64,000 nucleotides of DNA, taken from assembly GCF_024521635.1 (NCBI RefSeq), contig NW_026250432.1, positions 1 through 64,000 of the forward strand. The letters run 5' to 3'. The stretch is from Tricharina praecox (taxonomy: Eukaryota). Positions 1 through 64,000 of the stretch are shown here, in pieces. Each line of letters opens with the position of its first letter. The first letter of the stretch is position 1. A program made the position numbers and the translations under genes. The notes under the pieces were generated by a model that ran no database searches, was not told where the DNA came from, and saw only the letters and a list, made by a program, of their open reading frames with translations.

Positions 1-3000
1 CTTCAGCTCGCTGCTCGAGCAGTCGCGGAAGCTGCGCCAGGAAACCGACAACGCCGACCTCCCGTCCATCCAGCTCGGCCTGGGAGAGATTGAGCGACGC
101 GCCAAAGAGCTAAAGAAAACTGTCCCCGGACGAACCGATGCGAGAGCGTATGTTTGATACCCTTCGGAGAAGGGAATGCGAGGTGTACTGATGGGGGATC
201 ATCGCGCAGACGCTACCTGCTCCGCGCCGGAGGCATCGATGCCGATCAGAACTTGAGGGATCTGGAGTCAATCGATTTCCAAACAGCTTACGAGCCGTCG
301 GGACCGATCGACACCGACGTCGAGGTGAGCTTCATCCTCCAGCTGCCTGTCCGGCCATGTGTTTGTTTTTCTTGCTGACCCCGGATACACGTGAAATAGT
401 CGTACCTCCGCAACCGACGAGACCAGAGCGTCGAATCATCGATCGAGGAGGGCATGCGCCGTACTGCCCGCGACTTCGATTCGTTCGTCGCCAAGAATGT
501 CACCACCGAGTGGGAAGCGCAGAAGCAGCGGATATTCGAGCACTTCGGGCTCGGAGGAAAGCCGTCGCCCACCGCGCAGAACGGCGATAACGGCGGATTC
601 GGGCTGAGCGCTTTCGGTGCGTCGTCGTTCGGACGGTCAAGATTGAGCGGATCTGTGGGCCCCGCGAGTAACGGTGGAAACCTGGGTACCAACAGTGTCT
701 GGGCGAAGTTGAATCTGGGACAGAGCGTACTGGGCAAGTCAGTCACGGCGAGACCAACAGAGCAGACCGCTTCGATGTATCAGGGAAGCTTGTTTGCCGA
801 TGTGGACTCGTCGACACAGGCGGAGCTCTCGAGACCGGTACAGTTGAGGCAGCAGAGATATTCCCAGGCAGTCAAGAATTTGAACCTCACACGGCTGAGC
901 GCAACTCCGGGATCGGGGAGCTTCGCGATCATGAAGGAGTTTGGTGATCTCACAGCTGCCACGGGCGGCGATATGGTGAGTCCCGTACTGTACTTCTCTT
1001 CGCCTAAGACGGAATTATTAACACTTCGGGGTAGTTGACGCTACAGTTGCAAGATTCATGGAGCCTACTCAGTAACATCGTTTGCGAGGACGGCGGAGAC
1101 AACCCTTTTGGAGGTGCACAAGAACGGCGGTTTGTACGAGATCACATCTTGAATACTGCAGTCGACGGACAGGAGGCAGGCCGGATCCGCAAGCGTGTTG
1201 AGAAGGGCTCCAGGCGATTTTTGGAGAAACAGTAAGCTCGGTATCTTCGATAGCTCCATGAGGCGTGGCGCTGACTAGGGAAATCAGGTTCAACCAAGTG
1301 GTCGATAAGGCGGTTTCCGACAACCCCCAGATCGCTAGAGTTGGAGGTGTGCCATCAGTGTTTAACAAGTTCCGTGGTTTCATCAATGTCAAGATGGCTC
1401 AGAATAAGGACAAGCCAGACTGGGACGTCAGATGTTTCCAATCCATCAACGAAGTGCCGTGCTGGGCGATGGTCTTCTACCTGATCCGTGCTGGTTTGCT
1501 CAAGGATGCAGACAGCTATGTTCAGCAGCATTTGGCGCAGTTCCAGAAGCTTGATCGGGGCTTTGCATCGTACTTGCACGCGTACGTAGCCCACGAAGAC
1601 CGCCGCTTGTCCCGGCCGCTTCATGATCGTATCAACGGCGAGTACAACAACCGCATCCGTCATATGGAGGATTGCAAAGATCCCTTCAAGCCGGCAGTGT
1701 ACAAGATCATTGGACGGTGTGAGCTCGCGAAGCGATCACTCCCCAACATCATGCCCACGGCTGAGGATTGGATGTGGCTACAGCTCGTTTTGACGAGGGA
1801 AATCGACCGGACGTCGGAGCCTGCCCACGAGGTCTTTACCCTGCACGATCTCCAGAAGAGTGTTTCGCAGTTCGGCGCAAAGCACTTCATGGCTAAGGGT
1901 AGTAACTTTGGCCTGTATTTCCAAATGTTGCTCATGTGCGGACTATTCGAGGATGTAAGGACTACTATTCCCCCCACTATAGGATTCCACTGACGGGTTA
2001 GGCTGTTCACTATCTGTACGGATTCCAGTTCGTCGACGGAGTACACTTTGCCATCGCCCTCACATATTACGGATTACTGAGGCCGTCTGACAATCCAATG
2101 ACTCTGGAGCTGCTCACCCTGGGCGTAAATGGCGAAAAACGGATCAACTTCCCTCGGATGATTGGTTACTATACCTCCGATTTCCGCACCCCGGACACAG
2201 AGGCAGCAGTAGATTATCTCTCCCTTATATGTCTCAACGGTGATCTTCCCGACCCAGTCGGTCCTGCCCAGCTCAAGATCTGCCACGATGCTCTGCGGGA
2301 GCTCGTCCTCACAACCCGCGAGTTCACCAAACTGCTGGGCGACGTTCGTGCAGACGGAACTCGCGAGAAGGGGGCGATCGAGAAGCGGATGAAGCTCATC
2401 AAACTCTCGGACCAAGACCAATTCCTTCATACCATCACCGAACAGGCGGCCGTACAAGCGGACGACGACGGTCGGGCTGCAGATGCGGTGCTGCTGTACC
2501 ATCTTGCCGAGGACTATGATACAGTCGTACAGATCCTCAACAAGTATCTGTCTAGTCACATCGCATTGGACGATGGCATCCCGTTCCAGGGCCTTCACGG
2601 GTCAAACGTTCCTCCTGGCTCCAGCATGTCGCTTGCCTCTGTTGATGATCCTACGCACTTGGCGATCAACATGCTCACAGTGTACAAGAACAACCACATC
2701 GCGCGTAAGATCAACCCGCGTAATCGCGAGGCCTGTGGTGTTCTACTGCAGATCTCGGAGGCCAAGAGGCAATACGAGATGGGCGAGTGGGCAGCATGTC
2801 TCTCGGTAAGTCCCCCATCCGCCTTCCTTTCCCTGGGGCACACACAGCTAACCAGCAGCAGATCATCGACCACGTGGACGTGATCCCGCTCGACCCCCGC
2901 GGCGACGTCGGCAACATCCGCCGCCGCGCACAGAACTTCGTCACGCTGCACGAAACGGTGGCGCGCAACGTCGGCATCCTCCTCAAGATGGCGGTCGACT

Positions 3001-17266: not shown

Positions 17267-18663
17267 ATGAGCTTGACGCACTGCCAGATCTGCGACACCC
17301 GCGCGGCGCGGCTCACGTGCGCGCCGTGCACGCAGGCTTCGCTGTGGCCACGGCGCACCGAGTTCCTATTTCTCGCGGCGGAGCGCGATGGCGCCGCGGA
17401 GCGTGTACACGAGTATCTCGAAGCCTCTGGGAGCGCGAGGGGAGCACTGGACGACTGCCGGGTCAAGAGCGATGAGAAGCGTGAAGAGTACAGAAGGATT
17501 AATGATGTATTGATGGGAGGTATGTTGCCCCCTCCGACACTAGGATGGGGAAAGGGGGGGCGGCGGCTGATCTGGGTTGTGTGGGATAGAGAGGAAGAGG
17601 ATGGAGATGCTGCGAGCGGAGAATCGTTCGAGACGGCGGAAACTTGAGGCGGCGAGGGAGGCGGCGCTCGGTGAACAGGCCAGGGTCGATACGCTCAAGG
17701 CGGAGATTAAGCGGCTCAACCAGAAGACGAAGATTCTGTGCTCGAGGATGGCGGAGGCGCGGAGTTTTCTGTGTCGCGATGCGGCGGGGCTGGTGGGGCT
17801 GCGGTTGAAGAGACGGAAGAGTGGCAAGGTCGAGTATCTCATCGGCGGAGTGCTGATTCCGAACCTGTTGACGGACCTGAGTGGTAGGCAGATCTCCGGG
17901 GGGATATGGGAACGCTGTGATACTGATGACGGGGATTTGGATAGTACATCCGCACACGAGCATCAACGTCTCACTCGACCACCTCGCCCGCCTCGTCGTC
18001 CTGGTTTCCCACTACCTCGGTCTCAAGCTCCCGAACGAAATCACCCTTCCGCACCGCGGGAACCCCTACACCACCGTCCGCGGGCAACTCAACAACCGGC
18101 ACATGGCGGTGCGGCCACTAGTGGCCGACTCCCCACTACCAGTGATGGCGCGCGAGAACACCACGGCGCACTCCAAACTCGTCGAGGGGATCTCTATGCT
18201 CGCGCTCGACATCGCGTGGCTGTGCTACTCGCAGGGGCTCTTCGCCAACGAAGTCGAGGACGCCAGCAACATTGGCTACTGTATGTGGAAGCTGCTGGTT
18301 GCAAAAGACAGCACTGCCGTCACGAGCCCGGCCTTCGGCCGTATGTCGCACGCAACCATCAACGGGAACCTGACGCTCGCCCGCCACGAGCCCGTCATGG
18401 CCGGCTTCAGACTGAGATACAACCTCATTGCGGACCGCATACGCACCACGCTGCAGGGCGAGACCATGGTCGCCGACTGGGACATGGTGGCCGACGCTGA
18501 GGAACACGATAGTGCCACGTCGCGCAGGAGGTCGGTCCCCGATGCGGAAATAGACTCGTTTGAGGACGCAGCACTCAGCTTTCCGGCGGGGCCGGCGAGT
18601 AGCGGCGGGGGCGTGGGGAAGTGGACGCGGATTCGGTCGAGGAACGATGGCAGCGTTGGGTAG
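17267..18663 (+). CDS. Atg14/Vps38 (UVRAG-like) PI3K-complex subunit, 2 introns
   Basis: N-terminal CQIC...CAPC cysteine motif, a long coiled coil, then LVVLVSHYLGLKLPNEITLP and LALDIAWLCYSQG, typical of the fungal Atg14/UVRAG family. Confidence 0.75.
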
Positions 18664-24275: not shown

Positions 24276-26206
24276 CTAACTATTTTTCGGTCTTTTCGCC
24301 GTCGAACTTTCCGACTGGTCCGACTCGGGTGATCGTCTTTTGTTGTTTCCGTTTGTCTCGGACTCGCTCTTGAAGAAAGGCGCAGGATTCGGCCCAACGG
24401 GTGTCTGGAAGTTGAGTGGACTGGGCAGCATGCTGTCACCGCCTGCACCAGAACGTGAGAACGCATTCGTTCCCATATTGTCCATCCAGCCGGAGTAAAA
24501 CCCTCCCGGCGACGGGAGCATGGCATCCATGAAACGGCTTGGTAATGCGGACATCGGTGTTTGTTCGGGCTGACTGCTGTGCAAGTTCGCTGGGGGCCGT
24601 GAGAAAGGATTGGTGGGACCGGTGGCGCCTGCACTCAAGAGTCCCCCTATGCTGTGGCTGGGGGACGGGGGTGGCAGTACGACTGGTCCATTCTCATTGC
24701 CCGGACGAGCAGACACATTCCCGGCATTTCCGCTTGTGTCCCTGGGGGATGCATCCGGGCTACCGGCATCCGAATCCTCACTAGGAATTCGCACCTTCAG
24801 CTTCGGCCGCATTCCAGCAGACTTGGGGTCTGCCATGCTATTGTTCCGTGAGGGTGGTGGCGGGGGCGATGTGGACAAGGGCGGTAATGGGATTGGGGGC
24901 GGTATTGGCTTCTCCTCTGTCTTTGCCGCATTTCCACTGCCTCCACTTTGATTCGCGCTGGTCTCTATGGGGGGTGGCCGAGATTCCCGCGCGCCAAAGC
25001 CAAAGTGCGCCGCAAGCATGGAATCACTCGGACCGATAGGTGTGAACATGCTACGAGATTTCGCTGGTGCTCTTTTGTGCTCCATCGGCTGTGGTGGTGG
25101 AGGTGGTTCGGAACGCGTGGCCTGCTCGTTCTCGGGAGCAGATGACTCGACATTGTACACCAGTGGCATTGATTGCCGCCTGCTATTCTCGTAGTCCGAC
25201 TGTGGCTGCGATGTCTGTGACGGCTGGTGGTGCTGCGGTGGTGGTGGCTGCGCATACTGTGGATATTGCATCTGGCTCAAGTTGGATGGTTGCATCATCT
25301 GCCCGCCATACACCGGCGGAGGAGGCGGCTGGTGATGCTGTTGCTGATGCTGATGCTGCTGTGGCTGCTGCTGTGGGTGTTGGGGCGGGTGTTGCATGTA
25401 TGCATACCCATTCTGATGTGAAGGAGGCTGACTCGCAGGATACCCGTTCGGAGGCACGAGATTTGAGCTATTACGCCGAATTTGATTCCTCGACGATGGG
25501 CGCGTCATCGGTTGCGGCGTTCCAACACGAGGTCCCATCGGATAACCTGATGGACCGACAAGGGTTTTCGACATGTTTGGGGGAGAAGCAGAAGCGGTAT
25601 GTTGTCGATTCAAATGGGGCGGTGGATGCTGCATGTGGTGCGGCAGCGGATGATCGTTCGAAGAGTGTGAACCAGCGCGGTCAGCACCTATGATCGCGTC
25701 GTCGTCATCATCATCATCCATCAGATCCTTCTTCCCGAAGTCGCCTGGTCCTTTCGTCTCATGCGCCGTCTCGTACTGCAGCCAGAAAGTCAATATCCAC
25801 AGCAAAGAAAGCAGGCAAGCGGAAACTCGCGGAAAACATACGTATGAATGTCTGTTGATCATCTCATTCACGTCACCGGAGCAGTACTGGTATAACTTCT
25901 TGTTACCACTAAAGATGATGACCGCGACGTCTACCGAGCACAGCACGGAAAGTTCATGCGCCTTCTTGAACAGACCACCTTTTCGCTTCAGGAATGTACT
26001 ATGCGAGGGCAAACAGTCAGGATCTCCGAAACGGGCCGGTGAGGGAAAGGAAGCGATTCACGTACACTGAGCGATTCCGGTCATCCTTAATCGGCTTTAT
26101 TTCAATCTACGACCAAACAAGTAGACGTTAGCATTCATGGCCGCGCAATAAACGAGACGCGCCAGTGACCGTTGGGAGGATAAATGCACACCTTTCTTCG
26201 ACCCAT
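24276..26206 (-). CDS. rlmA: MEF2-type MADS-box transcription factor (RlmA/Rlm1/Smp1-like), 3 introns
   Basis: [48 protein letters not shown] (MADS box); C-terminal [25 protein letters not shown] and [11 protein letters not shown] motifs. Confidence 0.92.
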
Positions 26207-37609: not shown

Positions 37610-40600
37610 ATGCCGGCATTCCTGAACCGTGTGTTCAAAAGGGACGCAAACGCGAAGAGGTCACAGAATCAAACTCCTGTTCCCGATCAACCATCGGTTC
37701 CCAAATGGACCGATGGATGGCTGAGGACGGAGGTGTCGCCGATCGAGGTCCAGGAGCTGCTGCGCGTGTGTACTGCTGAAGTGAAATCGAGGGGTGCGTG
37801 GATCAAATCCAGTCAATTTCCTTCCTGAAAGAAAAAAAACCAAAGCTGGAAAATTGGACAAACAGAGGGGAAATTTGGGGGGATTTTTTTTTGAAAATTG
37901 CTGTAGAAAGAAGTGAAGTGCTGATGACAGATTATGTGTGGATTTGAACAGGCTTGTCGACTCCCTTCCTCCTCCTGCCATATCGCCCCAACACCGACCC
38001 GTGCGCCGCTCGATCGTTCATCCGCAATTTCTTCAGCCCGACAAATGGCCAGCTTACGGGCCCCTACCTGCAACAGGAGTTACGACTCACCGATCCCGAC
38101 GTTCTCTGCAGCGCTTTGAAATGGTGCTGGAGCAGGCTGCCGGGAGGTGTAGTCACGTGGGAGGTGTATGAGATGTTCCGTCAGGTAAGCAGAAGAAGCG
38201 GGAAAGCGAGCAGTTTGGGGGGTTTTTTGTTTTTTTGTTGTGGTGACTGACTGTCTTCTAGGGCGAAGTTGGTAAGATTTTTGCCCGTATCCTCGGCCGA
38301 GACACAGACGACTGGGGGAGCTTACCGGAATACAAAGCTCCCGAGTCGTCGGTTTAAGGTTTTAAAGTTAGAGTTAAGGCTGAGCTTTATTTTTTTAGAT
38401 TCGAGCATGGCTCGAGACTCTTTCGCCACATTCATCCCGATCAGTGCCGAGTCCGAGGCCCGGTCCAATATAATCTTTGATTACTTCGACCTACTCTCAG
38501 CCGTCGCCGCCAATGGCAAGCACAACGGTCTGGGTGGACTCAAACTGTCGAGGTTGGCGGGTTGGTGGGCCTTCGAGCACACTGATACGGGTTATGGATT
38601 CGAGGGCGGTTACACTTCATGGACGAGCGCCGCGGATGCAACCTGTCATCTTTTCTTTGCCTATATGAGGTCGCTTTCGCCTGCAGATCCCAGCAGAAGT
38701 GTTTCATTGTTGCCAACCTCGCTGAGAGCGCTGCTTGCGTCCGTGGACTACCCACCCGTGACACCCCAACAGTTGCAGACCCGCACAGTGAGAGTCGTCA
38801 TAACCGTCGACAAAGTCTCGCCCTCTCCCTTTGCGTTGCTGAGGAGGGCCAAGAATCTCCATTACAATCACAGCGATCGTGCATTGAAGGTGTTCACCGA
38901 TTTCGACGACCCCATCCGAGCTCTTACGGACGAGTGCAGACGTGTGTTGAAATGCATCTCCGCGTCTAGTCACGGTCAATCTTCCGCCAGCAGAGCATCG
39001 AACGGGCTTCAGGATCAGTCCTGGTCCAGGTTCCAGGACCTGGGATTCGCTGGACTGACGGAGGCCGAGTCCGAGGACTCGGAGGATGATGCTCTCCACT
39101 CGGAAACATTCAGCCGTCGCATTTCGTCCCAATCTCACCAGCCACCAGCCACGACACCATCTAGTCCCCTCGAGAGAGAGGAATTCGCCGAGGTTGCGCG
39201 GCCGATGACTCCATCGTGGGCAGACTTCATGGATGCTGGCTTTGGCGATCGCGAGATCAGCAATGCTCCAGCTCCGCATCTCCTGCCTCCGGACAAGGTC
39301 CTCCCGCCCATCGACACTGCGGATCGTCTCAAGAGCTCGCAGTCGAACCGGAGGATGCAGATTCTGGAGCCTGGCGAGTTGGAAAGCATCACCCCGATGT
39401 CGGTTGATGACGTGTTTTGGTGGGTTTGGATGTCGAGTTTGGCCGGAGAGGAGACTGCGCTCCGAAAAGCCGTTTTTGGTCGTTGCGCGCTGGTCGAGAC
39501 TACGGTGCAAGGTGCCAAGTGGTTGGTGGTTGAGGCACGTACCGTTTGCACCCCCGACACGACTGAACGCCCTGCTGACTTGTCTGTAGGAGAAAATCCG
39601 CGGCGCCGCAACAATGGCGGAGGCTCCTGTGGTGACCAAGAAGGATAGGAAATGGACCAAGAGGACTAGGCTGAGGAGGAAGTCGCTCAGCACACCCGAA
39701 GTGCCTACCCAGCAGTCACTAAAACCTTTCAATGCATCGCTGCACACCTCGAGCAGAACCAACATCGGCCCGGACCAGACGGCGAAGATTCAGGCAGCGG
39801 CTGCAGCTCTACGACAGCAACAGTCGGATGCAGAGTTTTCGCACTTGAGGCGTAATAGGCCGCGCGAACATGCGACAGATGCGAAGACCAACAGCGTGTT
39901 TACCCTGCAACCAGTCATCATGTCCGAAGCCACGCCGGCCATGAAGTGGGCGAACCGATACGATCGTGACAACCTGCGAGATGCATACATCAAGGGTGTC
40001 CCGCCACCAGAGAAGAAGCCTCAGGTCGACACGGACCGGGCTCTCCCTGCCCTTCCGAGGGAAGAAACCGCTCCTGTGGCTAAACCGCAGGCGGAGACCT
40101 CCCTGCCTGCACCGGCGCCTGCATCTTCGACGACATCCATTCCGGTGAAGAGCATGATCGCGCCCATCGAGGCTGAGCCCCCTCGGAAATTGGCTGCTCC
40201 TGCGAACATTACTATCGCACCTGGCACCGCCGTCGCTCCACCTGCCAACAGTGGACGCTCGTCTCCCGCCATCAACAAACGAATGTCCATGAGTCCCACC
40301 CCGGTGCATCCTGTGGCCCCCACATCCGATAAGTCGAACAAGAAGGTCTCCCGCCTTCGAGCTATGTTTGGCATGAAGGCGGAGGGAACCGTCCTGTCTC
40401 CGTTGGGGGCCCCGGCTTCACAGCAGCTCGCAGTTCCAGTGGCGGAGGTCGGCCGCAAGAACTCCCTGAGAAGGAGCCGTTCCCCTGTTGAGTCTAAGAC
40501 GCCACAGGCCTCGGCCCCCCCGACTCCCGAGCCAAAGATGTCGTCAGAACAGGAGCCATCGATGAAGGAGACTGCACCCGCGTACCCTGCCCCGCCCGTC

Positions 40601-42042: not shown

Positions 42043-42995
42043 AGTCTGCCGTCCTTCCCCCAACTACGGAAGAAGCATTGACTGACCATGTCTCTCTCTT
42101 CCAGTGCTCGAAGCGCGCCTCGAACAAGCCACGGTCCTGAAGAAGGTCGTAGACGCGATCAAAGACCTAGTTCAAGACTGCAACTTCGACTGCAACGACA
42201 GCGGGATCGCGTTGCAAGCGATGGACAACAGCCACGTGGCTTTAGTCGCCATGCACCTGAAGACGGAGGGGTTTAACCTATTCCGGTGCGACCGCAACAT
42301 CGCGCTGGGGATCAACCTGGGCTCGCTACAGAAGGTGCTACGCGCTGCGCAGAACGAGGATATTCTCACGCTCAAGGCGGAGGATGCTCCCGATGTCCTC
42401 AGTCTGGTCTTCGAGAATACGGAAAATGATCGTATCAGCGAGTATGATATCAAACTTATGGATATCGATCAGGAACACCTCGGTATTCCCGAGACGGAAT
42501 ACGGTGCCACGGTCACCCTCCCCAGCGCCGAGTTCCAGAGGATCTGTAGGGACCTGATACAGATCTCCGAGTCTGGTACATTTCCCCCTTCCCCTCGTCC
42601 CCCCGCCATCACTAACACGTGCTACCTGCCAGTATCCATCGAGGCCAACAAGGAAGGCATCAAGTTCAGCTGCACCGGCGACATCGGTAGTGGCGCGGTA
42701 ACACTGCGGCAGAACGCGAACGTCGACAAGCCGGAGCTGGGCACGACCATCGACCTGCAGGAGCCCGTCGCCCTCACCTTCTCGCTCAAGTACCTGGTCA
42801 ACTTCTGCAAGGCCTCCGGCCTGTCGAATACCGTTACCCTGTCGCTAAGCAATGAGATTCCGCTGTTGATTGAGTATGTCCCCTATGAGTGGAGGGAGTG
42901 CTGTGCTGATGCATGTGGTTGTGTGTGATAGGTACAAGATGGAACACGGATTCGTCAGGTTCTATCTCGCCCCCAAGATTGGTGACGAGGAGTAG
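42043..42995 (+). CDS. POL30: Proliferating cell nuclear antigen
   Basis: [30 protein letters not shown]...[11 protein letters not shown]...[11 protein letters not shown]. Introns at 42044-42104 (splits the ATG), 42576-42632 and 42874-42931. Confidence 0.97.
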
Positions 42996-47079: not shown

Positions 47080-49257
47080 CTACTTCTTCTCTTTCTTCGC
47101 TTTGGTTTGCTTCTTGCCCTTCGCCTTGGCCACCTTCTTAACCTCTGTTGTCTCCTTGGCTTCCTCTACTGCCTTCTCTGCCTTCTTGACCTCCTTCTCT
47201 ACTACCTTCAGCTTCTCAACCTCCTTCGTAGCCTTCTCAACCTCCTTGTCCTCCTCCTTCTTCTCCTCTGCCTTCTCGGCCTTCTTCTCGTTCTTTCCCT
47301 TCTTGTTCTTCGCTTTCTCCTTCTTCTCCTCCTTCTTCTCCTCCTCCTTCTTCTCCACAATCGTCTCCACAATCGTCTCCACAATCTTCTCGTCCTTCTT
47401 GTCCGCCAGCTTAGCATCAGGGTTAATACCCTTCCTCTTCAACATCTTCCTCTCCGCCTTCACGGCAAACTCCTTATCCGCCTCCTCATCGAATGCAACA
47501 GCCTCACCAGATTCATCATCCTCGGTGTCGACATCCATGACATCAGCGGCGACCTCGCCATCCTTGGCGACCTTCGCCTGCACCGTCGGGCCGACCTTCT
47601 TGAACTTGGCGACGAAGAAACCGTCGACGTTGTACATGTGGGGGTAGAATCTCTTAGTCCACTTCAGCTTATCGTTGAACTGCTTTCCGCGGAAGCTCGT
47701 GAACCCGGGGGTTCCAAATGTCAATCCGGTCTCGACGAGCTTGACATTTGGTCGCTTCCTGAGCGCGTAGTCGACGACGGCTTCGTTCTCCTCGACAGTG
47801 ACGGAACACGTCGAGTACACGATGTAGCCGCCTGTGCTCGACGAGTGGTCGACACTGTCGATTGCGCAGAGCAGCAGCTGCTTCTGCAGGTGCGGCAGGA
47901 CCATGAAATCCTTCTCGTCCTTGTTGGTCTTGACACTGGGATCCTTGGAGATAACGCCTGTTCCGGAGCATGGCGCGTCGAGGAGGACGCGGTCGAAGCC
48001 GCCGATGACTTTGGGAAACTCGCGGGCGTCGTAGTTGCAGACGACAGTGTTCTTGACACCCAGGCGGTGGATGTTACCGATCAGACCACGGGCACGGTCG
48101 CGGCTGGGATCGTTGGCGAAGACACAGCCGGTGTTCTTCATTAGGGCGGAGATGTAGGTTGTTTTTCCACCGGGCGCAGCGGCCATGTCGAGGACTCGCT
48201 CGTTGATCTGGGGGGCAAGTGCCATGACGGGGAGGAAAGACGAGGCGGCCTGGAGGATGTAGTGGCCAGCGAGGTACTCGGGAGTGGCTCCGAGGGGGAC
48301 GCTGGACTCGAAGACCTGTAGTCCGACCTTCGACCATTTTCCGACGGGCTCGAGGGTGACACCGCGGTTGATGAGCGCCTGGGCGAGCTCTCTGCGCGCA
48401 GTCTTGAGCGTGTTCGTTCGGATCACCAATGGCCTCTGCTTCTCGTTGGCCTCGAAGAACGAGAACGCCTCGGCGGGAGAGAAGAGCTGGTAAAGTTTCT
48501 CGGCCATGAACGGCGAGTAACCGTAGTATTCGCAGACATCCTTCAACAACTGCTCAGTGTACTCCGTCCTCGACCGTCCCTCCTCCCCTAGGTTCTTGTG
48601 GTCCTCCAGCACACGGATAGTATCGGTGATTCGTGTGCGCAGCAAGGTGATGTCCGGGGGAGCCATCGACATTCCCTCGTCGTCCTCTCCAGCGTTGCCC
48701 AGAATGCGCGGCTTATCCTCCGCAATATTTGTCTGCATCTGCGACTCAGCGAGTTCTGCCGCCGCCTCCGCCTCCTCAATCGCCTTCTGCATGTCGAGTT
48801 TCCGCGACAGACCAGCGATGTTGGCAGCCGTCAACTTCTCCTCCGCATCGGACTCGTCCTCGTCGTCCGAGAACAGCGGGCGCGGCGCTTCGTCACCCGA
48901 GTCGTAGACGTCCGAGTCGGATTCTCCGCCGTCAAGGAAGTCGTCTCCCAGCTTGTCTTCGGGTGTCGCATCGGCATCGGAGTCGTCCTCGGACACCAGG
49001 TCAAACTCATCCTCCGCGGCAGGAGCAGCAGCGGGCTTCGGCTTGGGTTCTGGCTTCCTGGCAGCAGCTCTTGGCTGCGACACCTTCGGTTTTCCCGCCG
49101 CCGCTGTAGGCTTTCCCTTCTTTGCGGCCTCCTTCCTCTTCTTCGCAGGTGCATCGTCCGCGTTGAAACCACGGCCCTTTCTCTTCTTGGTGCCGAACTT
49201 AGCCTCCTGGAGTGACTCCGGAGGTCCTTGATGTTGTCTCGAGCGTCCGGGACCCAT
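47080..49257 (-). CDS. NOP2: 25S rRNA m5C methyltransferase Nop2 (intronless)
   Basis: IRTNTLKT, GATPEYLAGHY, VLDMAAAPGGKT, FDRVLLDAPCSGTG, VYSTCS, DGFFVAKF; K/E-rich tail. Confidence 0.97.
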   Translation of the reverse strand: MGPGRSRQHQGPPESLQEAKFGTKKRKGRGFNADDAPAKKRKEAAKKGKPTAAAGKPKVSQPRAAARKPEPKPKPAAAPAAEDEFDLVSEDDSDADATPEDKLGDDFLDGGESDSDVYDSGDEAPRPLFSDDEDESDAEEKLTAANIAGLSRKLDMQKAIEEAEAAAELAESQMQTNIAEDKPRILGNAGEDDEGMSMAPPDITLLRTRITDTIRVLEDHKNLGEEGRSRTEYTEQLLKDVCEYYGYSPFMAEKLYQLFSPAEAFSFFEANEKQRPLVIRTNTLKTARRELAQALINRGVTLEPVGKWSKVGLQVFESSVPLGATPEYLAGHYILQAASSFLPVMALAPQINERVLDMAAAPGGKTTYISALMKNTGCVFANDPSRDRARGLIGNIHRLGVKNTVVCNYDAREFPKVIGGFDRVLLDAPCSGTGVISKDPSVKTNKDEKDFMVLPHLQKQLLLCAIDSVDHSSSTGGYIVYSTCSVTVEENEAVVDYALRKRPNVKLVETGLTFGTPGFTSFRGKQFNDKLKWTKRFYPHMYNVDGFFVAKFKKVGPTVQAKVAKDGEVAADVMDVDTEDDESGEAVAFDEEADKEFAVKAERKMLKRKGINPDAKLADKKDEKIVETIVETIVEKKEEEKKEEKKEKAKNKKGKNEKKAEKAEEKKEEDKEVEKATKEVEKLKVVEKEVKKAEKAVEEAKETTEVKKVAKAKGKKQTKAKKEKK

Positions 49258-49362
49258 TGTGTGTGTAATTTGGTGGTGGGGGGAGCGTGGTGGGTTCGTG
49301 GGTATATGGTCTGGTTCGATTGACCAGCAGACACAGCAGCACTTTGTAGAGAAACCAAAATC

Positions 49363-49415
49363 AACTTTTTTTGCGCGGAACTTGCAGGGGTCGCCTGTTT
49401 GGTCTAACTCATCGC
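49363..49415 (-). promoter_or_regulatory. PAC and RRPE-like ribosome-biogenesis motifs in the NOP2/GET5 divergent promoter
   Basis: CTCATCGC (reverse complement of PAC GCGATGAG) at 49408-49415, and AACTTTTTTTGCGC (RRPE-like) at about 49363. Confidence 0.45.
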
Positions 49416-49569
49416 TGCTTAGCGGGGTTTATCAGAGAGCTAGCCGACACAGTTATCTAATCTAATCGTCCCGCATAGATTCCCCGCCATCATCCTCACC
49501 ACTTCTCAGCTGCTCCATCTTCATCCCACACAGAAGCCACCACCTACAACTCCTTCTACACCGCCCAAA

Positions 49570-55710: not shown

Positions 55711-57066
55711 ATGCGTTACTGCGCAAATCTCCTCTCGGTCGTTCTCGCTTTCCTGACGGCGGGATCGACAGTCTCCGCCCAGAACTACGGCAATGGTTGC
55801 AAGACCATTAACTCCATCTCCTACTGTGAGGCCGTCCAGGGCATCGCCTATAACGACATCAGCGGATCCGGAACGTACGATGATGTCTCCCGCATGGACG
55901 CTGCAACTTGCAAGTGTGATACGAAACCTAAGGCCTACAACGGAGCTATGGCACCTTTGGATGAGCAGGTATATAACCGTTCTCAATCGTCAACATCCTT
56001 TGATATCACTCGGTCGCTAATATCTTTCCCCGAATAGCTCTCCCTGCACTTTCGTGGCCCATTAGCTCTCAAGCAGTTTGCGGTGTACTACCCAAGCTCT
56101 TCAGCCCAGGGTAAGCGTAAAGCGAAGCGTGCCACCCACCTCCAGAAGCATGCTCGTAACGACAGGAAGCATGGACATGGCCACAGGAAGCCTCACAGGA
56201 AGGCCGCTTCCGGGAATATGGTCCGCACTGCGTACTACGACTCCAAGAAGGGAACTGCCGATGGACTCGTCTTCATGAACCACAAGGGCGGAGATGGCTC
56301 CGGTGTCTTCGACCAGTACGTATCCCTGCATGTGCACGCTTGTTGAAGGACTATCGACTGATTATACCCCACTACAGCTGTTGGGGAAATTCGCTGTCCT
56401 ACATGAGCCCGAACTGTAAGTCCGGCTCCGCTAAGCCCCAGATCCTTAGCGATATCACCATGCCTTCCAACACCGAGTTCGTGATTTTCTCCGACGAGAA
56501 GTGTGATGGCGACTGTGGTTACTCCCGTCCGGGCATTCCGGCTCATCGTAAGAAGCTTCCCGCTCCGTCACTTTGTTTGTGAGCGTCTCCATACTGACAC
56601 GTACATACTAGGTGGTTTCGATGGTAAGAACAAGATCTTCATGTTTGAGTTCCAGATGCCCAGGGATACCTCAGGTAGCTTCAATCAGAATATGCCTTCC
56701 ATCTGGGCTCTTAACGCCAAGATCCCCCGCACTGCTCAGTACGGTTCGTGCTCTTGCTGGGGCTCCGGCTGCGGCGAGTTCGACATGTTCGAGGTCCTGG
56801 AGGACGCCCACGACTACGTCAAGTCCCACTACCATGCCGCCCAGGGCGCTGTCTCCGGCAACAAGGGCGGAGGTGGTGCCCCCGACTACTTCAAGCGCCC
56901 CTACGACAAGACCATCAAGGCTGCCGCCATCTTCGACGAGCGGGGTACCGTCACCGTCAAGATCCTGGATGACGCGGTCCAGTTCGGCCGTGCCCTCGAT
57001 CCCAAGGTTCTCGGCGAGAACGCCAGGCCCAGCGGCAAGATATCCACCTACAATGTTCCTAAGTAA
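55711..57066 (+). CDS. Secreted TOS1/PGA52-like cell-wall protein (DUF2403 plus DUF2401), 3 introns
   Basis: Signal peptide, then GAMAPLDEQ|LSLHFRGPLALKQFAVY, WGNSLSY, KIFMFEFQMP, MPSIWALNAKIPRTAQYGSCSCWGSGCGEFDMFE, YFKRP. Confidence 0.88.
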
Positions 57067-58628: not shown

Positions 58629-60494
58629 TTGGATGCGGTTATTCCGTTTGGGTTCTACCATAGCAATCAACTGCTACTCTGAAGGCCTGCTCCATAATGC
58701 GAGCAGACTCCAACTACCTATGATCGAGTACCTCGATACGGTACTCTACAGCGATGTATAATTTGGTTACTAGCCGTGAGGTATTCCGCGTAAAGTGGCA
58801 ACCACAAAGGACGGGTCAGCACTCTAGGCTGGGTGGGATTGACTGCCACGTTACGAATGATAACCGAGTAATCTCACCCAATTGATTGTCATCGACTTTT
58901 ATTAAGTCCCCATGGGAAACACCAACACAGAAGTAAACAAATACATACTTCCACGCTGATGGCCGACGACCCAAGAATCGCTGGAGGCTCAATCCATAGG
59001 AATTACCAACCGATAGTGTCTGGCTCAATATCCGTCCATGCTCTATGGAAGCTGGCACTGGGAACTGGTGTTTTTTTTCCCTCTTTTTTTTTCTTCTTCG
59101 GGGGCTTGATCATCTACCATTGGAAAAGAGGGGTCGTCTGCGCCTCTTGCAGGCGAGACAGAGCGCACGTCTGGATTCATGCCAGCAACTATGGAGTAGC
59201 CATGTAGCAGAGAGAGTTCTGCCACAACACCCGTGTCACCGCACAAACTCCTCCACTGGTTCGGAGACCGACGATACACCACAGCAACAGGATGCTTTTC
59301 TTTCTTTCTCTAACTATCTCGGAAACCCGAGACTACAGGGACTTTGGAGCGTGTCAATCCGGAGTACCTATCACGCTCCAACTCGCAGTTTTATCGGCGG
59401 TGCTGAAGGGAGATTGTTTTTCTCCAGACCTGTGTCTCCTGCCGAGAAGATCACGAGATGGAACTCCCTTAAAGCCACTACCTACCTAGGTATGTTTTAG
59501 TTTCCGGTATGGTACTTATGAGCTTGAAATGGATCCAGTACATACGGTCGTGGGTGATGCGTGATGTGTGGGGGGGGGGGGGGGGGGTGTTAAGCATGCT
59601 GTCGAAATCGAGGGAAAAAAGCCGAACGAAATGTCAAATGTCGGTGGATGAGCAAAATGCTGGCCTGTCAACGCATGAATCCAACGGATTTAAGCCTTGC
59701 TGTGCGGAGGGAAAGCTCTCGTTTGCCGAGAGCTGACCACATGCCACGTCAGCCCGCAGCGAGCCAATTGGACACTGACACTGCACGTAACGATGTGTCC
59801 AGACTCCACTGACAGGTCGAACTCAGACTTTCGAGTCTCAAGACTCAGAGACCTCCCGCGCCGTGGCGCAAATAAAAGCAAAGCACAGACTGACAAACGA
59901 CCGCCACACGGGACCGTGTCCTTCCCCGCACAGCCATACTGCGCCACAGCACTTACAACTCACTGCGGCTCTGTACGGCGGGGCTCTGCCGCAGCAAAAA
60001 AAAAGGCAGATTATGGATTGAAAACCTGGAATAAGGAAGATTCCTGCCCATACGTTTGTACGAATGCGTGATTTTACTCATGTTGCTGATGTCGATGCTG
60101 GGCTGCCAAGTCTGGAGGCGGGCAAGTCCACGTTGAACTCTCCGCCCACGGCCACGGCACGCATGCGAGGACAAGCATAGCTCAGAGCGTGGCTCTGCCA
60201 ACCAATTGGCAGTGTTCCACATATATACATCTAACTTTATGTTGAGGGCTGCGACTGTCCACATCGGATGACCAGGATCCTGCAACGGAAAGGAATGCTA
60301 TCGCACTGATCTGCTGGTTGGGGCAGCGACCGGCAATAGCCCCCCCGTATGTAGAGCTCACAGTAGCTCTGTGCTTCGAGGCCCAGGAAAGAGTGTCGCC
60401 GGCTTTGAACAGTTTAAATGCAGAGTATGGCCTCGTTGCTTAGAGATTCACTACACCGGACCCGCTGCAGCGTTTGACCAGACTCAGTGTTACA

Positions 60495-63400
60495 ATGTCC
60501 AGTGAAAGTCCCCGTTCAAAGGAGGTTCAAGTGGAAGTCCGGATTGGAGCAATGCCGGGTTTGCAGATTCGAACGAAGGAAAAACTTCATGCTGCGTTCG
60601 AGAAGATCGACGAGAATCCCACGGTGAGTGTCATACCACACGACGTTCGTTCATTTAGATGTCGTGACGTCTGATGATACAACCCGCAGAACGATCCAGT
60701 GACTTTCTGGTGAGTGCAAAAAAAAACACCCGAGTAAACCATCGATGGCTTCTGATGGACTTTGCAGCTACGACGAAACAAATATCCGGCCCGATATCTT
60801 GATTGTACTATCGGCGGAGCTCTCCCGGAGGGTACTAAACAACTACAAAGGAGTTTTTCTTCCCGGAATCAAACTCCCGGACAAGGCGGAGACAAATTTT
60901 TTAGCAAAGCACAATGCCGCCGAATGCACCGTTTGTCCCGGGACGGATTTTTGTGGTCTGCAATCCCTTGCCACCTTGTACGCAACATGCTTGCTGCAGT
61001 ACTGACAATGACACAGACCATGTCGGTTTCTGGTCCCAAATACCGCGTCTGAAGGTATCAGGTTAGCACTCTCCGTTTACCTCCATATCAGCCCGACAAT
61101 ACTGACTCCTTGATTAGAGGTAACAGGCAACGCCGAACGAACTCGTCAGAACATTGAGGATAAACAAAGGATGGAGTTCATAGAAAAGGACGTCGCGTTT
61201 ACGTTTCACACTAGGTAAGTTCTGTTGGCCAGACCGCAAAGGCTATCGAATCAACACTCATAATCCGCACAGCGAAGGGTCCCGCACATACATTCGTACG
61301 CATGCATGGTTCTACATTCTGACTGATGTCCATAACCGTATCTTCGCATTCACAAACGTTTCCACCACTACCGTACCGGAAACTCCTACTGGATGGTTGA
61401 GAGCCTCTCTCGAGGAGATCTGCGACGGATGGGAGGACGTTATCGCAGAATGTGAACAACAGGTCGCCTTCGCAGTACGTATGATCCGTGCGCAAAACTA
61501 TTTCCACTCGGGCTAACCTTTGCAGAGCAAACAGATAGTCCCCGGAGAGCCCGAAGGGCCGGAAGAGAGGTCTGCAATTTCACGTGTAGGAGCGATGTTA
61601 GGCCACTCTGGTAGCCAATCACGTACACGGGAGAGTTTACCGGCACAGTTTTTGCGGTCCTTGACCAAAGTAGCCGATATTTCCGGTCGTCTGGACGCCG
61701 CACATAGGGAACAACAACGAGGAGTGGCCATGATGATCAAGGCTGGCGGTCACCGATGGCCAACACGTCGCGCGCAAAATAACAGAACTGCACCCATTCA
61801 TCATCCATCTCTTGGGCAATCCGGGGGGAGAACGACTGGATTGCAACCAACCATCGGCAATGACACTGAATTGGAAGAAGTTCTACAACGTTTCAAGATT
61901 GTGTTTGACGGCAGTGGGTTGGTTAAGAAGGTCGATGATCTTTTTCAAAGGGTATGTCTTCGGTCACTTTTAGTGGGTACCTGATTTTTGACTCAATCAG
62001 GCTACGAATATCATGTCCATCGACGAAGCGCATAAGGCTCGGGAGCAGGGGGCGAGCATGCGGAGGCTGTCCTGGGTAACAGTAGGTTCCGCCGGTGAAT
62101 GTATTTCCGCAATGACGCTGACGGTTTTCAGTTTATATTTTTACCCCTCCTCTTCGTGGCGGTAAGTGGCCTTGAATGCGAAATTTTACCCATCCGCTAA
62201 TAATCATGCTAGAGTTTATACGGTATGAATGTGGGTATTCCGATACACCCCCTCACCCCCTCCGAACAACATTGCTAACCTGTAGATTAGGTGGATGCTA
62301 CCGAAAACAACCCAACATGGACGACCTTCTTCTACATCGCCGTACCAGTTTTTACCGTCGTTATGTTGAGTGTGTTGATACTTAAGTTCCGCAAGGGGCT
62401 CCGGAGTTTCTTACCCAACCCAGCAATCCGCACGAAACGCAACCAGAATAACGGCGGCGACATAGAGAATCAGAAGGCCGAACTTCACAGCATGAGCATC
62501 CCCTTGATCTCAGCGATCGAGCAAGATATGGTCGCCGTCGTCGAGCAGTATCTTGTCGAGCGGAGTGACATCGATAGAGACATTCCCGAACGCGGGAATG
62601 CACTACAATGTGCGTTGATTGCGGGAAGTTTGGGTGTGACTACCCTTCTTCTGGAAAAGAAAGCGGATGTCAATGCAGCGCCAGGACCATACCGCGGCGG
62701 AAGAACCGCCCTCCAAGCAGCATCGGAAGGACGCCACCTTGAAGTGGTGGATCGACTCTTGGAGAAGGGGGCCGATGTCAACGCAGATCCAGCACGTCAT
62801 TCCGGAAGAACCGCCCTACAAGCAGCATCGGAAGGAGGCCACCTTGAAGTGGTGGATCGACTCTTGGAGAAGGGGGCTGATGTCAACGCAGATCCAGCAG
62901 GTCATTCCGGAAGAACCGCCCTACAAGCAGCATCGCAAGGAGGCCACCTTGAAGTGGTGGATCGACTCTTGGAGAAGGGGGCCACTGTCAACGCAGCGCC
63001 AGCAAGATTTTCCGGAAGAACCGCCCTACAAGCAGCATCGGAAGGAGGCCACCTTGGAGTGGTGGATCGACTCTTGGAGAAGGGGGCCGATGTCAACGCA
63101 GATCCAGCACATGGTTCCGGAAGAACCGCCCTACAAGCAGCATCGGAAGGAGGCCACCTTGGAGTGGTGGATCGACTCTTGGAGAAGGGGGCCGATGTCA
63201 ACGCAGATCCAGCATTTGATTCCGGAAGAACCGCCCTACAAGCAGCATCGGAAGCAGGCCACCTTGGAGTGGTGGATCGACTCTTGGAGAAGGGGGCCAC
63301 TGTCAACGCAGATCCAGCATTTGATTCCGGAAGAACCGCCCTACAAGCAGCATCGGAAGGAGGCCACCTTGGAGTGGTGGATCGACTCTTGGAGAAGGGG

Positions 63401-64000
63401 GCCACTGTCAACGCAGATCCAGCATTTGATTCCGGAAGAACCGCCCTACAAGCAGCATCGGAAGCAGGCCACCTTGAAGTGGTGGATCGACTCTTGGAGG
63501 AGGGGGCCACTGTCAACGCAGATCCAGCAAGTCGTTCCGGAAGAACCGCCCTACAAGCAGCATCGGAAGGAGGCCACCTTGAAGTGGTGGATCGACTCTT
63601 GGAGAAGGGGGCCGATGTCAACGCAGATCCAGCAGGTCATCCCGGAAGAACCGCCCTACAAGCAGCATCGGAAGGAGGCCACCTTGAAGTGGTGGATCGA
63701 CTCTTGGAGAAGGGGGCCGATGTCAACGCAGCGCCATCAGATTGGCACGGAAGAACTGCCCTACAAGCAGCATCGGAAGGAGGCCACCTTGAAGTGGTGG
63801 ATCGACTCTTGGAGAAGGGGGCCACTGTCAACGCAGATCCAGCAGGTGATTCCGGAAGAACCGCCCTACAAGCAGCATCGGAAGGAGGCCACCTTGGAGT
63901 GGTGGATCGACTCTTGGAGAAGGGGGCCGATGTCAACGCAGATCCAGCATATGATTACGGAAGAACCGCCCTACAAGCAGCATCGGAAGGAGGCCACCTT
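60495..64000 (+). CDS. CorA-like membrane protein with a C-terminal high-identity ankyrin array (3' end outside window)
   Basis: Frame-consistent exons: 60495-60623, 60690-60709, 60768-60955, 61017-61061, 61118-61214, 61273-61474, 61526-61951, 62001-62081, 62132-62161, 62213-62230, 62291->64000. They give ...SIDEAHKAREQGASMRRLSWVT|FIFLPLLFVA|SLYGMN|VDATENNPTWTTFFYIAVPVFTVVMLSVLILKF, then GRTALQAASEGGHLEVVDRLLEKGADVNA repeats. Confidence 0.85.
62699..64000 (+). repeat. 105-bp coding tandem repeat (35-aa ankyrin units), 12 full units plus a partial 13th
   Basis: GGAAGAAC(C/T)GCC starts at exactly 105-bp spacing: 62699, 62804, 62909, 63014, 63119, 63224, 63329, 63434, 63539, 63644, 63749, 63854, 63959. 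Confidence 0.98.

Follow-up and report, generated by a model that had tools for sequence, protein, structure and literature searches.

Positions 60495 to 64000 of a 64,000-nt stretch of Tricharina praecox DNA (hereafter, the window) carry a gene for a CorA-superfamily protein with two transmembrane helices (TM1 and TM2) and the GMN pore signature, and this gene is expressed and correctly spliced. In place of the few residues that usually follow TM2, the cytosolic C-terminus is a long solenoid of nearly identical ankyrin repeats, which differ almost only at their hairpin tips. The best explanation, which we hold tentatively, is a CorA–ankyrin channel gated by recognition, a plausible role that we infer from the composition, variation and relatives of the protein.

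The gene has 11 exons on the + strand. It opens with an ATG at 60495, preceded by an in-frame stop at 60441–60443, and its reading frame is unclosed at 64000, where the window end cuts the C-terminus, giving a product of at least 982 amino acids. From the N to the C terminus, the layout is a probable divergent CorA cytosolic domain, a stalk, TM1 with YGMN, an acidic loop, TM2, a basic linker and the ankyrin repeats. Ten GT..AG introns are removed in spliced contigs from two public runs (two studies); the RNA nature of both runs is presumed, and the contigs themselves bridge the introns. Contigs X1 (1976 nt) and X2 (1466 nt) are each identical to the window, with 0 other letters, and to each other over the non-repeat part. 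Their joints bear out the 11-exon gene of the original prediction and, with a public model (BZA05DRAFT_171187, here P0001; 427 amino acids, 100% identical to the window), the sequence and a structure model, give the following features:

60192–60494, + strand: 5′ untranslated part (approximate lower bound; X1 continues upstream of 60400 for 208 nt and shows no other joint there)
60495–60623, + strand: exon 1, ATG and start of the N-terminal domain (contigs and public model)
60690–60709, + strand: exon 2, 20 nt (flanking joints in both contigs)
60768–60955, + strand: exon 3 (joint 60955 to 61017 in both contigs; agrees with P0001)
61017–61061, + strand: exon 4 (contigs; the public model agrees)
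61118–61214, + strand: exon 5 (contigs)
61273–61474, + strand: exon 6, in which the N-terminal domain ends and the helical part begins (contigs and structure model)
61526–61951, + strand: exon 7, helical stalk region (contigs; 100% identical to P0001)
62001–62081, + strand: exon 8, where the stalk ends and TM1 starts (contigs; Pfam CorA match on P0001 residues 358–417)
62132–62161, + strand: exon 9, 30 nt, core of TM1 (joint 62081 to 62132 in contigs; translation)
62213–62230, + strand: exon 10, 18 nt, last part of TM1 with YGMN (48-nt count in both contigs; translation)
62291–62389, + strand: first part of exon 11, with the acidic outer loop and TM2 (both contigs resume at 62291; second hydrophobic segment)
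62390–62698, + strand: basic membrane-adjacent segment, linker and two degenerate capping ankyrin repeats (sequence; 7 K/R in 30 amino acids past TM2)
62699–64000, + strand: 12 full and one partial 35-amino-acid (105-nt) ankyrin repeats (the window end cuts the array)
62795–62803, + strand: hypervariable last three codons of the first unit, as in each unit (repeat comparison)

Both contigs skip eight introns (60624–60689, 60710–60767, 60956–61016, 61062–61117, 61215–61272, 61475–61525, 61952–62000 and 62082–62131). Each contig has exactly 48 nt separating 62081, where exon 8 ends, from 62291; this equals exon 9 plus exon 10, and introns 9 and 10 are therefore also removed; the removal of these two is arithmetic on the contig records, their joints not being among those listed. 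In both contigs the TM1/GMN micro-exons are spliced directly to the exon that carries TM2 and the ankyrin array, as had been predicted, and the continuity from GMN to VD across the exon 10/11 junction is the same in homologues P0002 and P0005. A 39-nt intron with exon 4 at 61017–61054, in another frame, was considered and is ruled out by the contigs. The gene had been described as missed by the open-reading-frame track. Its full structure is indeed absent from the annotation, but a public model does exist; P0001 is truncated, because it keeps intron 10 and meets a stop before TM2. With this faulty 3′ end, domain-based surveys miss the architecture, and other genomes in which micro-exons surround the GMN motif may carry the same annotation error. 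T. praecox is a soil cup fungus. A soil metatranscriptome run (X4) gave a single 266-nt contig, at depth 2, over 62557–62690, to which we give no weight.

The early end of the public model would also be expected of an artefact or a decaying gene, either a misassembled array or a two-gene read-through without a stable protein, as would an array that extends past the window end and contigs that stop 37 nt inside the array region. We consider this very improbable: TM1 is bridged to TM2 and the linker by two contigs, the frame stays open for 1710 nt, the 12 units carry distinct tips and are not copies of one unit, and the same continuous CorA-then-ankyrin architecture is annotated in six other genera (Pyronema, Maublancomyces, Arachnomyces, Ascobolus, Peziza and Lineolata).

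The window product up to GMN (P0001) matches the Pfam CorA family (PF01544) at 50.7 bits (cut-off, 27), and homologues P0002 and P0005 match it at 63.6 and 64.1 bits, with the stalk through TM2 covered; single exons gave no CorA match in Pfam because TM1 is split over three exons. The TM1/GMN string quoted in the original prediction is present in the spliced product, with YGMN at residues 409–412 of the 982-residue model, at the outer end of TM1 in exon 10. Exactly two hydrophobic segments are found; the loop has 0 K/R and 2 D/E, and 7 K/R lie within 30 residues after TM2, a pattern that, by the positive-inside rule, probably places both termini in the cytosol, as had been proposed. GMN is present in 112 of the 113 proteins that have a TM segment followed by G-x-N, counted in a pool of 158 fetched proteins that includes near-duplicate cluster members and some non-relatives, and the stalk helix is also conserved. 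The fungus-specific CorA-like branch to which the gene belongs shares the motif RLSWITFIFLPL..[FY]GMNVD..NP.W.

Although it had been called unrecognised, the N-terminal region most probably represents a diverged cytosolic domain of CorA type rather than a new effector, judging by Foldseek and Atlas. The structure model has a pLDDT of 63, with residues 76–191 below 50 and helices at residues 198–231, 267–304 and 338–410; the best Foldseek matches of this low-confidence model are CorA and Mrs2 (prob 0.99, E 0.02, TM score ~0.25). Residues 6–234 of the Atlas model align to Mg-transporter clusters (TM scores 0.57 and 0.54), and VIA gave Z of 8.2–10.3 for CorA, Mrs2 and ZntB, tied with generic helical bundles. 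At the sequence level, P0001 alone gave weak CorA matches (E ~0.4), a profile of alignment A1 searched against PDB sequences gave matches dominated by ankyrin proteins, and the family PF26616 (‘CorA-like’), named by Atlas, had no match in the Pfam copy used, even at E 10.

A regulated but ordinary metal transporter, that is, an extra CorA-like Mg2+/Co2+/Ni2+ channel of filamentous ascomycetes, would account for the strictly conserved GMN and loop and for a Pfam CorA match above the cut-off. It would also suit the neighbourhood, in which the genes are housekeeping (Nic96, ATG14, PCNA and a NOP2-type methyltransferase) with no NLR or HET cluster among them, and the CorA expansions in Scedosporium (PMC10694956) and Endocarpon (PMC3897900), read as transporters by the authors in the portions of those papers available. 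We nevertheless regard it as somewhat unlikely. Only 4 of 130 matches reach residues before ~250, and a housekeeping channel would not usually have such a nearly orphan N-terminal regulatory domain. Identity to Chaetomium thermophilum Mrs2, the protein compared, is 9–15% in structural alignments, by which measure the gene is not an Mrs2 orthologue, and no Mrs2-like protein was seen among the matches examined of the 130-hit search.

The repeats bear on the same alternative. Tandem Repeats Finder reported a 105-nt period with 12.4 copies and 93% matches at 62698–64000, and Pfam on exon 11 gave 397 bits for Ank_2 and 314.5 bits for Ank, in 12 stretches; the unit length is 35 rather than 33 amino acids. 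The at least 12 nearly identical repeats that had been predicted are thus 12 full units and one partial, the twelve being 93.1% identical at the nucleotide level with a mean pairwise amino-acid identity of 87% (12 × 35 amino acids). Codons 33–35, at the hairpin tip, have 7, 6 and 4 different residues and hold 54% of all nonsynonymous differences, as seen in a single T. praecox genome. For these codons pN is 0.49 and pS 0.056, and for the other 32 codons pN is 0.043 and pS 0.025, values taken between repeats that evolve in concert and not amounting to a formal selection test. As the tail of an ordinary transporter, the ankyrins would serve localisation, scaffolding or mechanical coupling, as in TRPA1 and NOMPC, with their near-identity reflecting recent tandem expansion and the loop tips being the least constrained positions. 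The almost identical units 5 to 7, which suggest a recent duplication, fit that account. Against it, tip pN is about nine times pS and the rest of the unit is homogenised, whereas neutral relaxation would raise pS too.

The same tip positions vary most in the arrays of Pyronema, Maublancomyces and Arachnomyces, and they form the known binding surface of ankyrins and are under positive selection in Podospora NLR ankyrins (PMC4986451, available portion). By the threshold for high internal conservation given there (>85% over ≥100 amino acids; PMC4986451), the array exceeds 85% and has hypervariable surface positions; the proposed likeness to fungal NLR arrays, conserved internally and hypervariable at hairpin tips, is in that respect sustained. 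No Pfam match to NACHT or NB-ARC and no Walker A motif (G-x4-GK[ST]) was found in the 982 amino acids within the window, in line with the predicted absence of a nucleotide-binding P-loop, and neither domain was matched in the eight complete clade relatives (P0005 is partial). The ankyrin region of P0007, one of these eight, contains a chance G-x4-GK[ST] match.

Phylogenetic analysis places the gene in an old and conserved Pezizomycotina clade of CorA-then-ankyrin proteins, so that it is not a one-off: the 10 rows in which ankyrins come after CorA group as a single clade (support 99/97; 100% of 200 bootstrap trees). Paralogues number 2 in Pyronema, at least 4 in Ascobolus and 2 in Peziza. Given several copies in these three related species and an N-terminal domain that diverges fast, the gene is not an invariant orthologue. 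Most other clade members have ordinary diverged ankyrins and not highly conserved arrays, which again suits an ordinary transporter. The wider family is recurrently fused to NACHT NTPases, which does not: 7 of the 39 long relatives scanned are NACHT-WHD-ANK-CorA proteins, all 7 with Walker A and GMN intact. These and the ankyrin-CorA proteins sit in a neighbouring group of the same tree, apart from the clade. The description of the gene as NLR-independent accordingly holds for its clade as far as visible, but not for the neighbouring group with its NACHT-fused forms. We found no paper on CorA–ankyrin or CorA–NLR fusions in the literature, and a paper on Sordariales NLRs mentions none of magnesium, channel, transmembrane or PF01544.

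Among the 39 long relatives, ankyrins precede CorA in 18 and follow it in 9, which suggests modular pairing in which the geometry relative to the funnel is not fixed. Such freedom could mean that CorA is a membrane anchor, providing pentamerisation and attachment while the ankyrin arms recruit or sequester partners and ion flux is irrelevant. An anchor would not require GMN to be invariant or the loop motif to be conserved, as they are across the proteins examined, and the stalk helix is conserved too; we find this reading quite improbable.

In the recognition-gated channel that we tentatively favour, the protein would form a pentameric cation pore in the manner of CorA; that GMN and the loop are strictly conserved argues for real ion passage. 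Five ankyrin arms would hang in the cytosol around the regulatory funnel, and a cytosolic partner that binds the fast-evolving hairpin tips would change the arrangement of the funnel, opening or deregulating the pore and causing a divalent-cation flux whose persistence could be harmful. The repeat pattern, the NACHT-fused forms in the neighbouring group and the mapping of a Morchella candidate make non-self or biotic recognition the most likely context. Several observations count against such a role: GMN conservation fits an ordinary metal transporter equally well, the neighbours are housekeeping genes, the clade members mostly have ordinary ankyrins, the NACHT-fused forms lie outside the clade, the Morchella candidate is only genetically linked and has no ankyrin annotation, the N-terminal model is poor and the VIA fold match is tied with generic helical bundles.

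Most of what is known of non-self recognition in fungi concerns NLRs and HET-domain genes, and to our knowledge the role of highly conserved repeat arrays outside NLRs is unexplained. In dikarya, 60–70% of such arrays have been attributed to NLR-like proteins (Dyrka et al., PMC4986451, available portion). Here, a highly conserved array is coupled directly to a conserved ion pore, which makes the hypothesis that binding controls flux testable by complementation, pore mutants and repeat swaps. A broader proposal, speculative and in our estimate unlikely, is that the fungus-specific CorA-like two-TM GMN domain has gone unrecognised as a membrane-executing module in the innate immunity and allorecognition of fungi; in Pezizomycetes, joined directly to fast-diversifying ankyrin sensors of NLR type as in the Tricharina gene, it would form a one-chain receptor-channel without a nucleotide switch and, in Sordariomycetes, stand at the end of NACHT-ANK proteins whose NLR oligomerisation would assemble a pentameric cation pore. 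Channel output is an emerging theme for plant resistosomes. NACHT-ANK-CorA proteins in plant-associated Sordariomycetes would tie fungal NLRs to such an output and, if this is true, the pentameric CorA pore on NACHT-ANK would be a built-in counterpart of plant resistosome channels.

With CorA, Mrs2, Alr1 and ZntB (PF01544) the Tricharina protein shares a long stalk helix leading into a TM1 with YGMN at its end, then a short acidic loop and TM2, a basic stretch behind TM2, and a probably CorA-like N-terminal domain. CorA has a handful of residues after TM2, whereas the Tricharina product has at least 535; unlike in CorA and MIT proteins, its N-terminal domain is barely recognisable by sequence, and the gene falls in a fungus-specific branch. 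With fungal NLRs (Podospora HET-E/HET-D and Pa_3_8560; Dyrka 2014, PMC4986451, available portion) it has in common repeat identity above 85% and variation at the binding surface, and repeats of the same 35-amino-acid type are present in P0006, an NLR-type protein that has a winged-helix domain. Unlike fungal NLRs, it shows no NACHT, NB-ARC or Walker A in the 982 amino acids seen, and its repeats are preceded by a membrane channel domain, which lies outside the N-terminal effector classes named in the available portion of PMC4986451.

In type III CRISPR systems (Bacteroides fragilis), an effector of the CorA family binds SAM-AMP and, likened by description, shares a CorA-type membrane output of non-self sensing that is activated through a cytosolic domain; it is bacterial, receives SAM-AMP from a separate sensor and, as described in the available portion of PMC10600005, has no repeat domain. 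The plant ANK-TM immune proteins Lr14a and ACD6 and the animal ankyrin TRP channels likewise join a cytosolic array and a cation-channel-like membrane part in one chain, but with unrelated multi-pass membrane domains, not a two-TM GMN domain, and with N-terminal ankyrins; in the available portion of PMC7878491, Lr14a gives race-specific resistance without an NLR domain, and molecular diversity is absent in it. Morchella importuna mimpvic32, a CorA-domain candidate for vegetative incompatibility linked by bulk segregant analysis, also comes from a Pezizomycete and has CorA PF01544, many introns and allelic variation that is mostly C-terminal; it has 773 amino acids and, in the available portion of PMC8940278, no ankyrin annotation, and it is a mapped candidate only, likened by description. 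The NACHT-WHD-ANK-CorA and ANK-CorA proteins of Sordariomycetes, Dothideomycetes, Leotiomycetes and Eurotiomycetes, which are database entries only (for example, in Colletotrichum, Podospora fimiseda, Apiospora and Botrytis), form a separate tree group with ordinary, diverged ankyrins that precede CorA, the reverse of the Tricharina order, but they belong to the same CorA-like branch and likewise carry GMN and ankyrins on one polypeptide.

The translation of exon 7 is 100% identical to one public protein, annotated as hypothetical in Tricharina praecox, 427 aa long and with a Pfam CorA domain (BZA05DRAFT_171187, here P0001), which identifies the window as Pezizomycete DNA. Our 11-exon model was first built on splice consensus alone, and most of its exons coincide with those of the public model; the two disagree around introns 3 and 4, and the public model enters intron 10 (62231–62290) and ends 15 residues past the GMN pore signature, without the second transmembrane helix (TM2). 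Two public sequencing runs from two studies (X1 and X2; library type guessed to be RNA) contained fractions of 0.61 and 0.49, respectively, of the words sampled from 60400–62690. Each gave one contig on the window, with 0 mismatches and eight GT..AG introns skipped, and in each the distance from the end of exon 8 to base 62291 was exactly 48 nt, as long as exons 9 and 10 together. Both contigs reach exon 11 (X1 to 62690, X2 to 62490) and bridge the TM1/GMN exons and the TM2/ankyrin exon, confirming the joint on which the original prediction depended. The corrected product has 982 residues within the window and no stop. The X1 contig reaches 208 nt upstream of 60400 with no added joint and gives no sign of another 5' coding exon.

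The X1 and X2 contigs show the public introns 3 and 4 to be correct, and a 39-nt intron of the consensus-built model was ruled out. Owing to the read-through of intron 10, P0001 has neither TM2 nor any of the ankyrin array; domain surveys using it would overlook the CorA–ankyrin fusion, and the 30- and 18-nt micro-exons around GMN may produce equal mis-annotation in other fungal genomes. A soil metatranscriptome (X4) contains one 266-nt contig, at depth 2, that is identical to the linker at 62557–62690 and extends beyond 62690, too slight a match to support a conclusion. An intergenic run of ~25 G lies at 59566–59590, ~600 nt upstream of the transcript contig start.

The receptor-like gene stands outside any NLR or HET cluster. 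The rest of the window carries housekeeping genes (an MFS transporter and the seven listed here), with no further copy of CorA, ankyrin or NACHT sequences elsewhere in the 64 kb.

Neighbouring genes in the window
1262–2883, Nic96
17571–18500, ATG14
24276–26057, SRF-type factor
38251–39648, Msb1
42086–42928, PCNA
47080–49428, NOP2-type RNA methyltransferase
56485–57066, Tos1

The protein has only two hydrophobic segments, separated by an acidic loop, and seven Lys/Arg within the 30 residues following TM2, a layout that corresponds to the CorA arrangement and would place both the N and C termini in the cytosol. The Pfam CorA match exceeds the cut-off, and the top PDB sequence matches, which are weak, are to Thermotoga CorA across the stalk, TM1 and GMN. 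With the mediocre predicted model of P0001 (pLDDT 63), the best Foldseek matches were all CorA or Mrs2, and a Foldseek-independent aligner returned CorA, Mrs2 and ZntB at Z 8–10, level with generic helical bundles, a tie that does not decide the fold. For residues 1–235, ESM Atlas feature search led to fungal 'CorA-like' clusters and structure search to magnesium-transporter clusters (TM 0.57 and 0.54). For the N-terminal region, originally described as unrecognised, the ESM Atlas and Foldseek matches suggest a strongly diverged CorA cytosolic domain, as a lead and not a proof. The N-terminal two thirds of the protein are matched solely by short metagenome fragments (P0010, P0012, P0013 and P0053; 40–66% identity), presumably from soil relatives; otherwise the N-terminal domain is an orphan.

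A full HMMER scan with P0001 against 1.84 billion representatives gave 130 matches at E ≤ 0.001, nearly all confined to residues ~330–415; four short fragments alone extended before ~250. Pfam domain orders were determined for the 39 matches of at least 600 aa, a selection that favours multi-domain proteins, and a word-based search added two CorA-then-ankyrin proteins (Pyronema P0002 and Maublancomyces P0005).

Domain orders in the Pfam scan of 39 matches, and hosts by source name
CorA then ankyrins: 9/39
Ankyrins then CorA: 18/39
NACHT-type NTPase (NPHP3_N), then ankyrins, then CorA: 7/39 (winged-helix in 4/7)
CorA only: 4/39
Ankyrin-only fragment: 1/39
Hosts, CorA then ankyrin: Pyronema (2), Ascobolus immersus (at least 4), Peziza echinospora (2), Maublancomyces, Arachnomyces, Lineolata
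Hosts, NACHT form: Colletotrichum (13-member cluster, eight named species), Podospora fimiseda, Apiospora (2), Whalleya, a Xylariaceae species

Walker A and GMN are kept in 7/7 NACHT–ankyrin–CorA representatives, all from outside the window (P0044, P0047, P0048, P0052, P0062, P0065 and P0098). Walker A is absent from the 982 residues of the window protein, and no NACHT domain was found in eight complete relatives of its clade. In the Pyronema and Maublancomyces proteins GMN-Val-Asp, loop and TM2 run uninterrupted, matching the spliced window model. A tree of 82 of the 159 proteins was built over 117 columns around GMN. P0001, which duplicates the window sequence, was omitted, as were near-identical members of clusters and any row with fewer than 70 residues ahead of GMN or fewer than 45 behind it (P0022, P0060 and P0030 among the rows omitted). 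All ten CorA-then-ankyrin rows lay on one side of a branch (support 99/97; 100% of 200 bootstrap trees), so that the C-terminal fusion looks like one old event; ankyrin-first and NACHT forms were intermixed in another large group, which puts the NLR link at family level and not inside the CorA-then-ankyrin clade. The family is multi-copy in related species and divergent, in partial answer, for related species only, to the proposal that a single-copy invariant orthologue would mark a simple Mg2+ transporter.

Beyond TM2 the chain runs through a basic stretch and a linker into two degenerate ankyrin repeats; these are followed by 12 complete units of 35 residues, and a 13th has just begun where the window ends. 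Identity between units is 93.1% in DNA (96.2% without the last three codons) and 87% in protein, above the 85% threshold for 'highly conserved' repeats used by Dyrka et al. (PMC4986451). Codons 33, 34 and 35 show 7, 6 and 4 distinct residues, and every other codon at most two. Over 66 unit pairs, pN was 0.49 versus pS 0.056 at codons 33–35 and 0.043 versus 0.025 at the remaining 32, values that describe the pattern and are no selection test, the units of one array being non-independent and subject to concerted evolution. On our own alignment to the designed-ankyrin consensus, codons 33–35 fall at the tip of the hairpin, immediately ahead of the first helix, which is part of the classical ankyrin binding face. 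Four clade members have 35-residue arrays of the highly conserved type (Arachnomyces, 84% over three units; P0002, 71%; Maublancomyces, 64%; and the window), with the last 3–5 positions most variable in each; in the remaining clade members checked, and in all NACHT and ankyrin-first forms checked, the ankyrins are of the ordinary, diverged kind. The repeat type of the window array recurs in P0003 and in P0006, which is NLR-type and bears a GPIID winged-helix domain.

The CorA-then-ankyrin architecture of the gene is demonstrated; that the protein is a pore we infer from its place in the CorA family and from how strictly GMN and the loop are conserved. The ankyrin arms would leave the membrane on its cytosolic side, next to the regulatory funnel, a geometry that could let them control the pore; their ligand may be a non-self or biotic cue, in view of how the repeats vary, of the NACHT fusions that occur in the family and of a linkage in Morchella. 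A recognition-gated channel, in which the arms sense such a cue and control the pore, is our tentative reading of the sequence, held at somewhat below even confidence; an ordinary regulated transporter seems to us a little less likely.

Our literature search found no paper describing a CorA–ankyrin or CorA–NLR fusion, or an NLR layout bearing a C-terminal channel-type domain. The closest case in print is mimpvic32 of the Pezizomycete Morchella importuna, one of two candidate vegetative-incompatibility genes from a bulk-segregant study, which has 8 introns and a CorA-domain product of 773 aa; between its two alleles identity is 92.6%, with most differences in the C-terminal region, the supplementary table of domains lists CorA alone and no ankyrin, and the authors report that strains with identical alleles still give barrages (PMC8940278). 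Precedents for the logic of the window protein are a CorA-family effector of a type III CRISPR system, a binder of SAM-AMP whose proposed action is membrane disruption (PMC10600005), and the plant ANK-TM proteins Lr14a and ACD6, proposed to be Ca2+-permeable immunity channels (PMC7878491).
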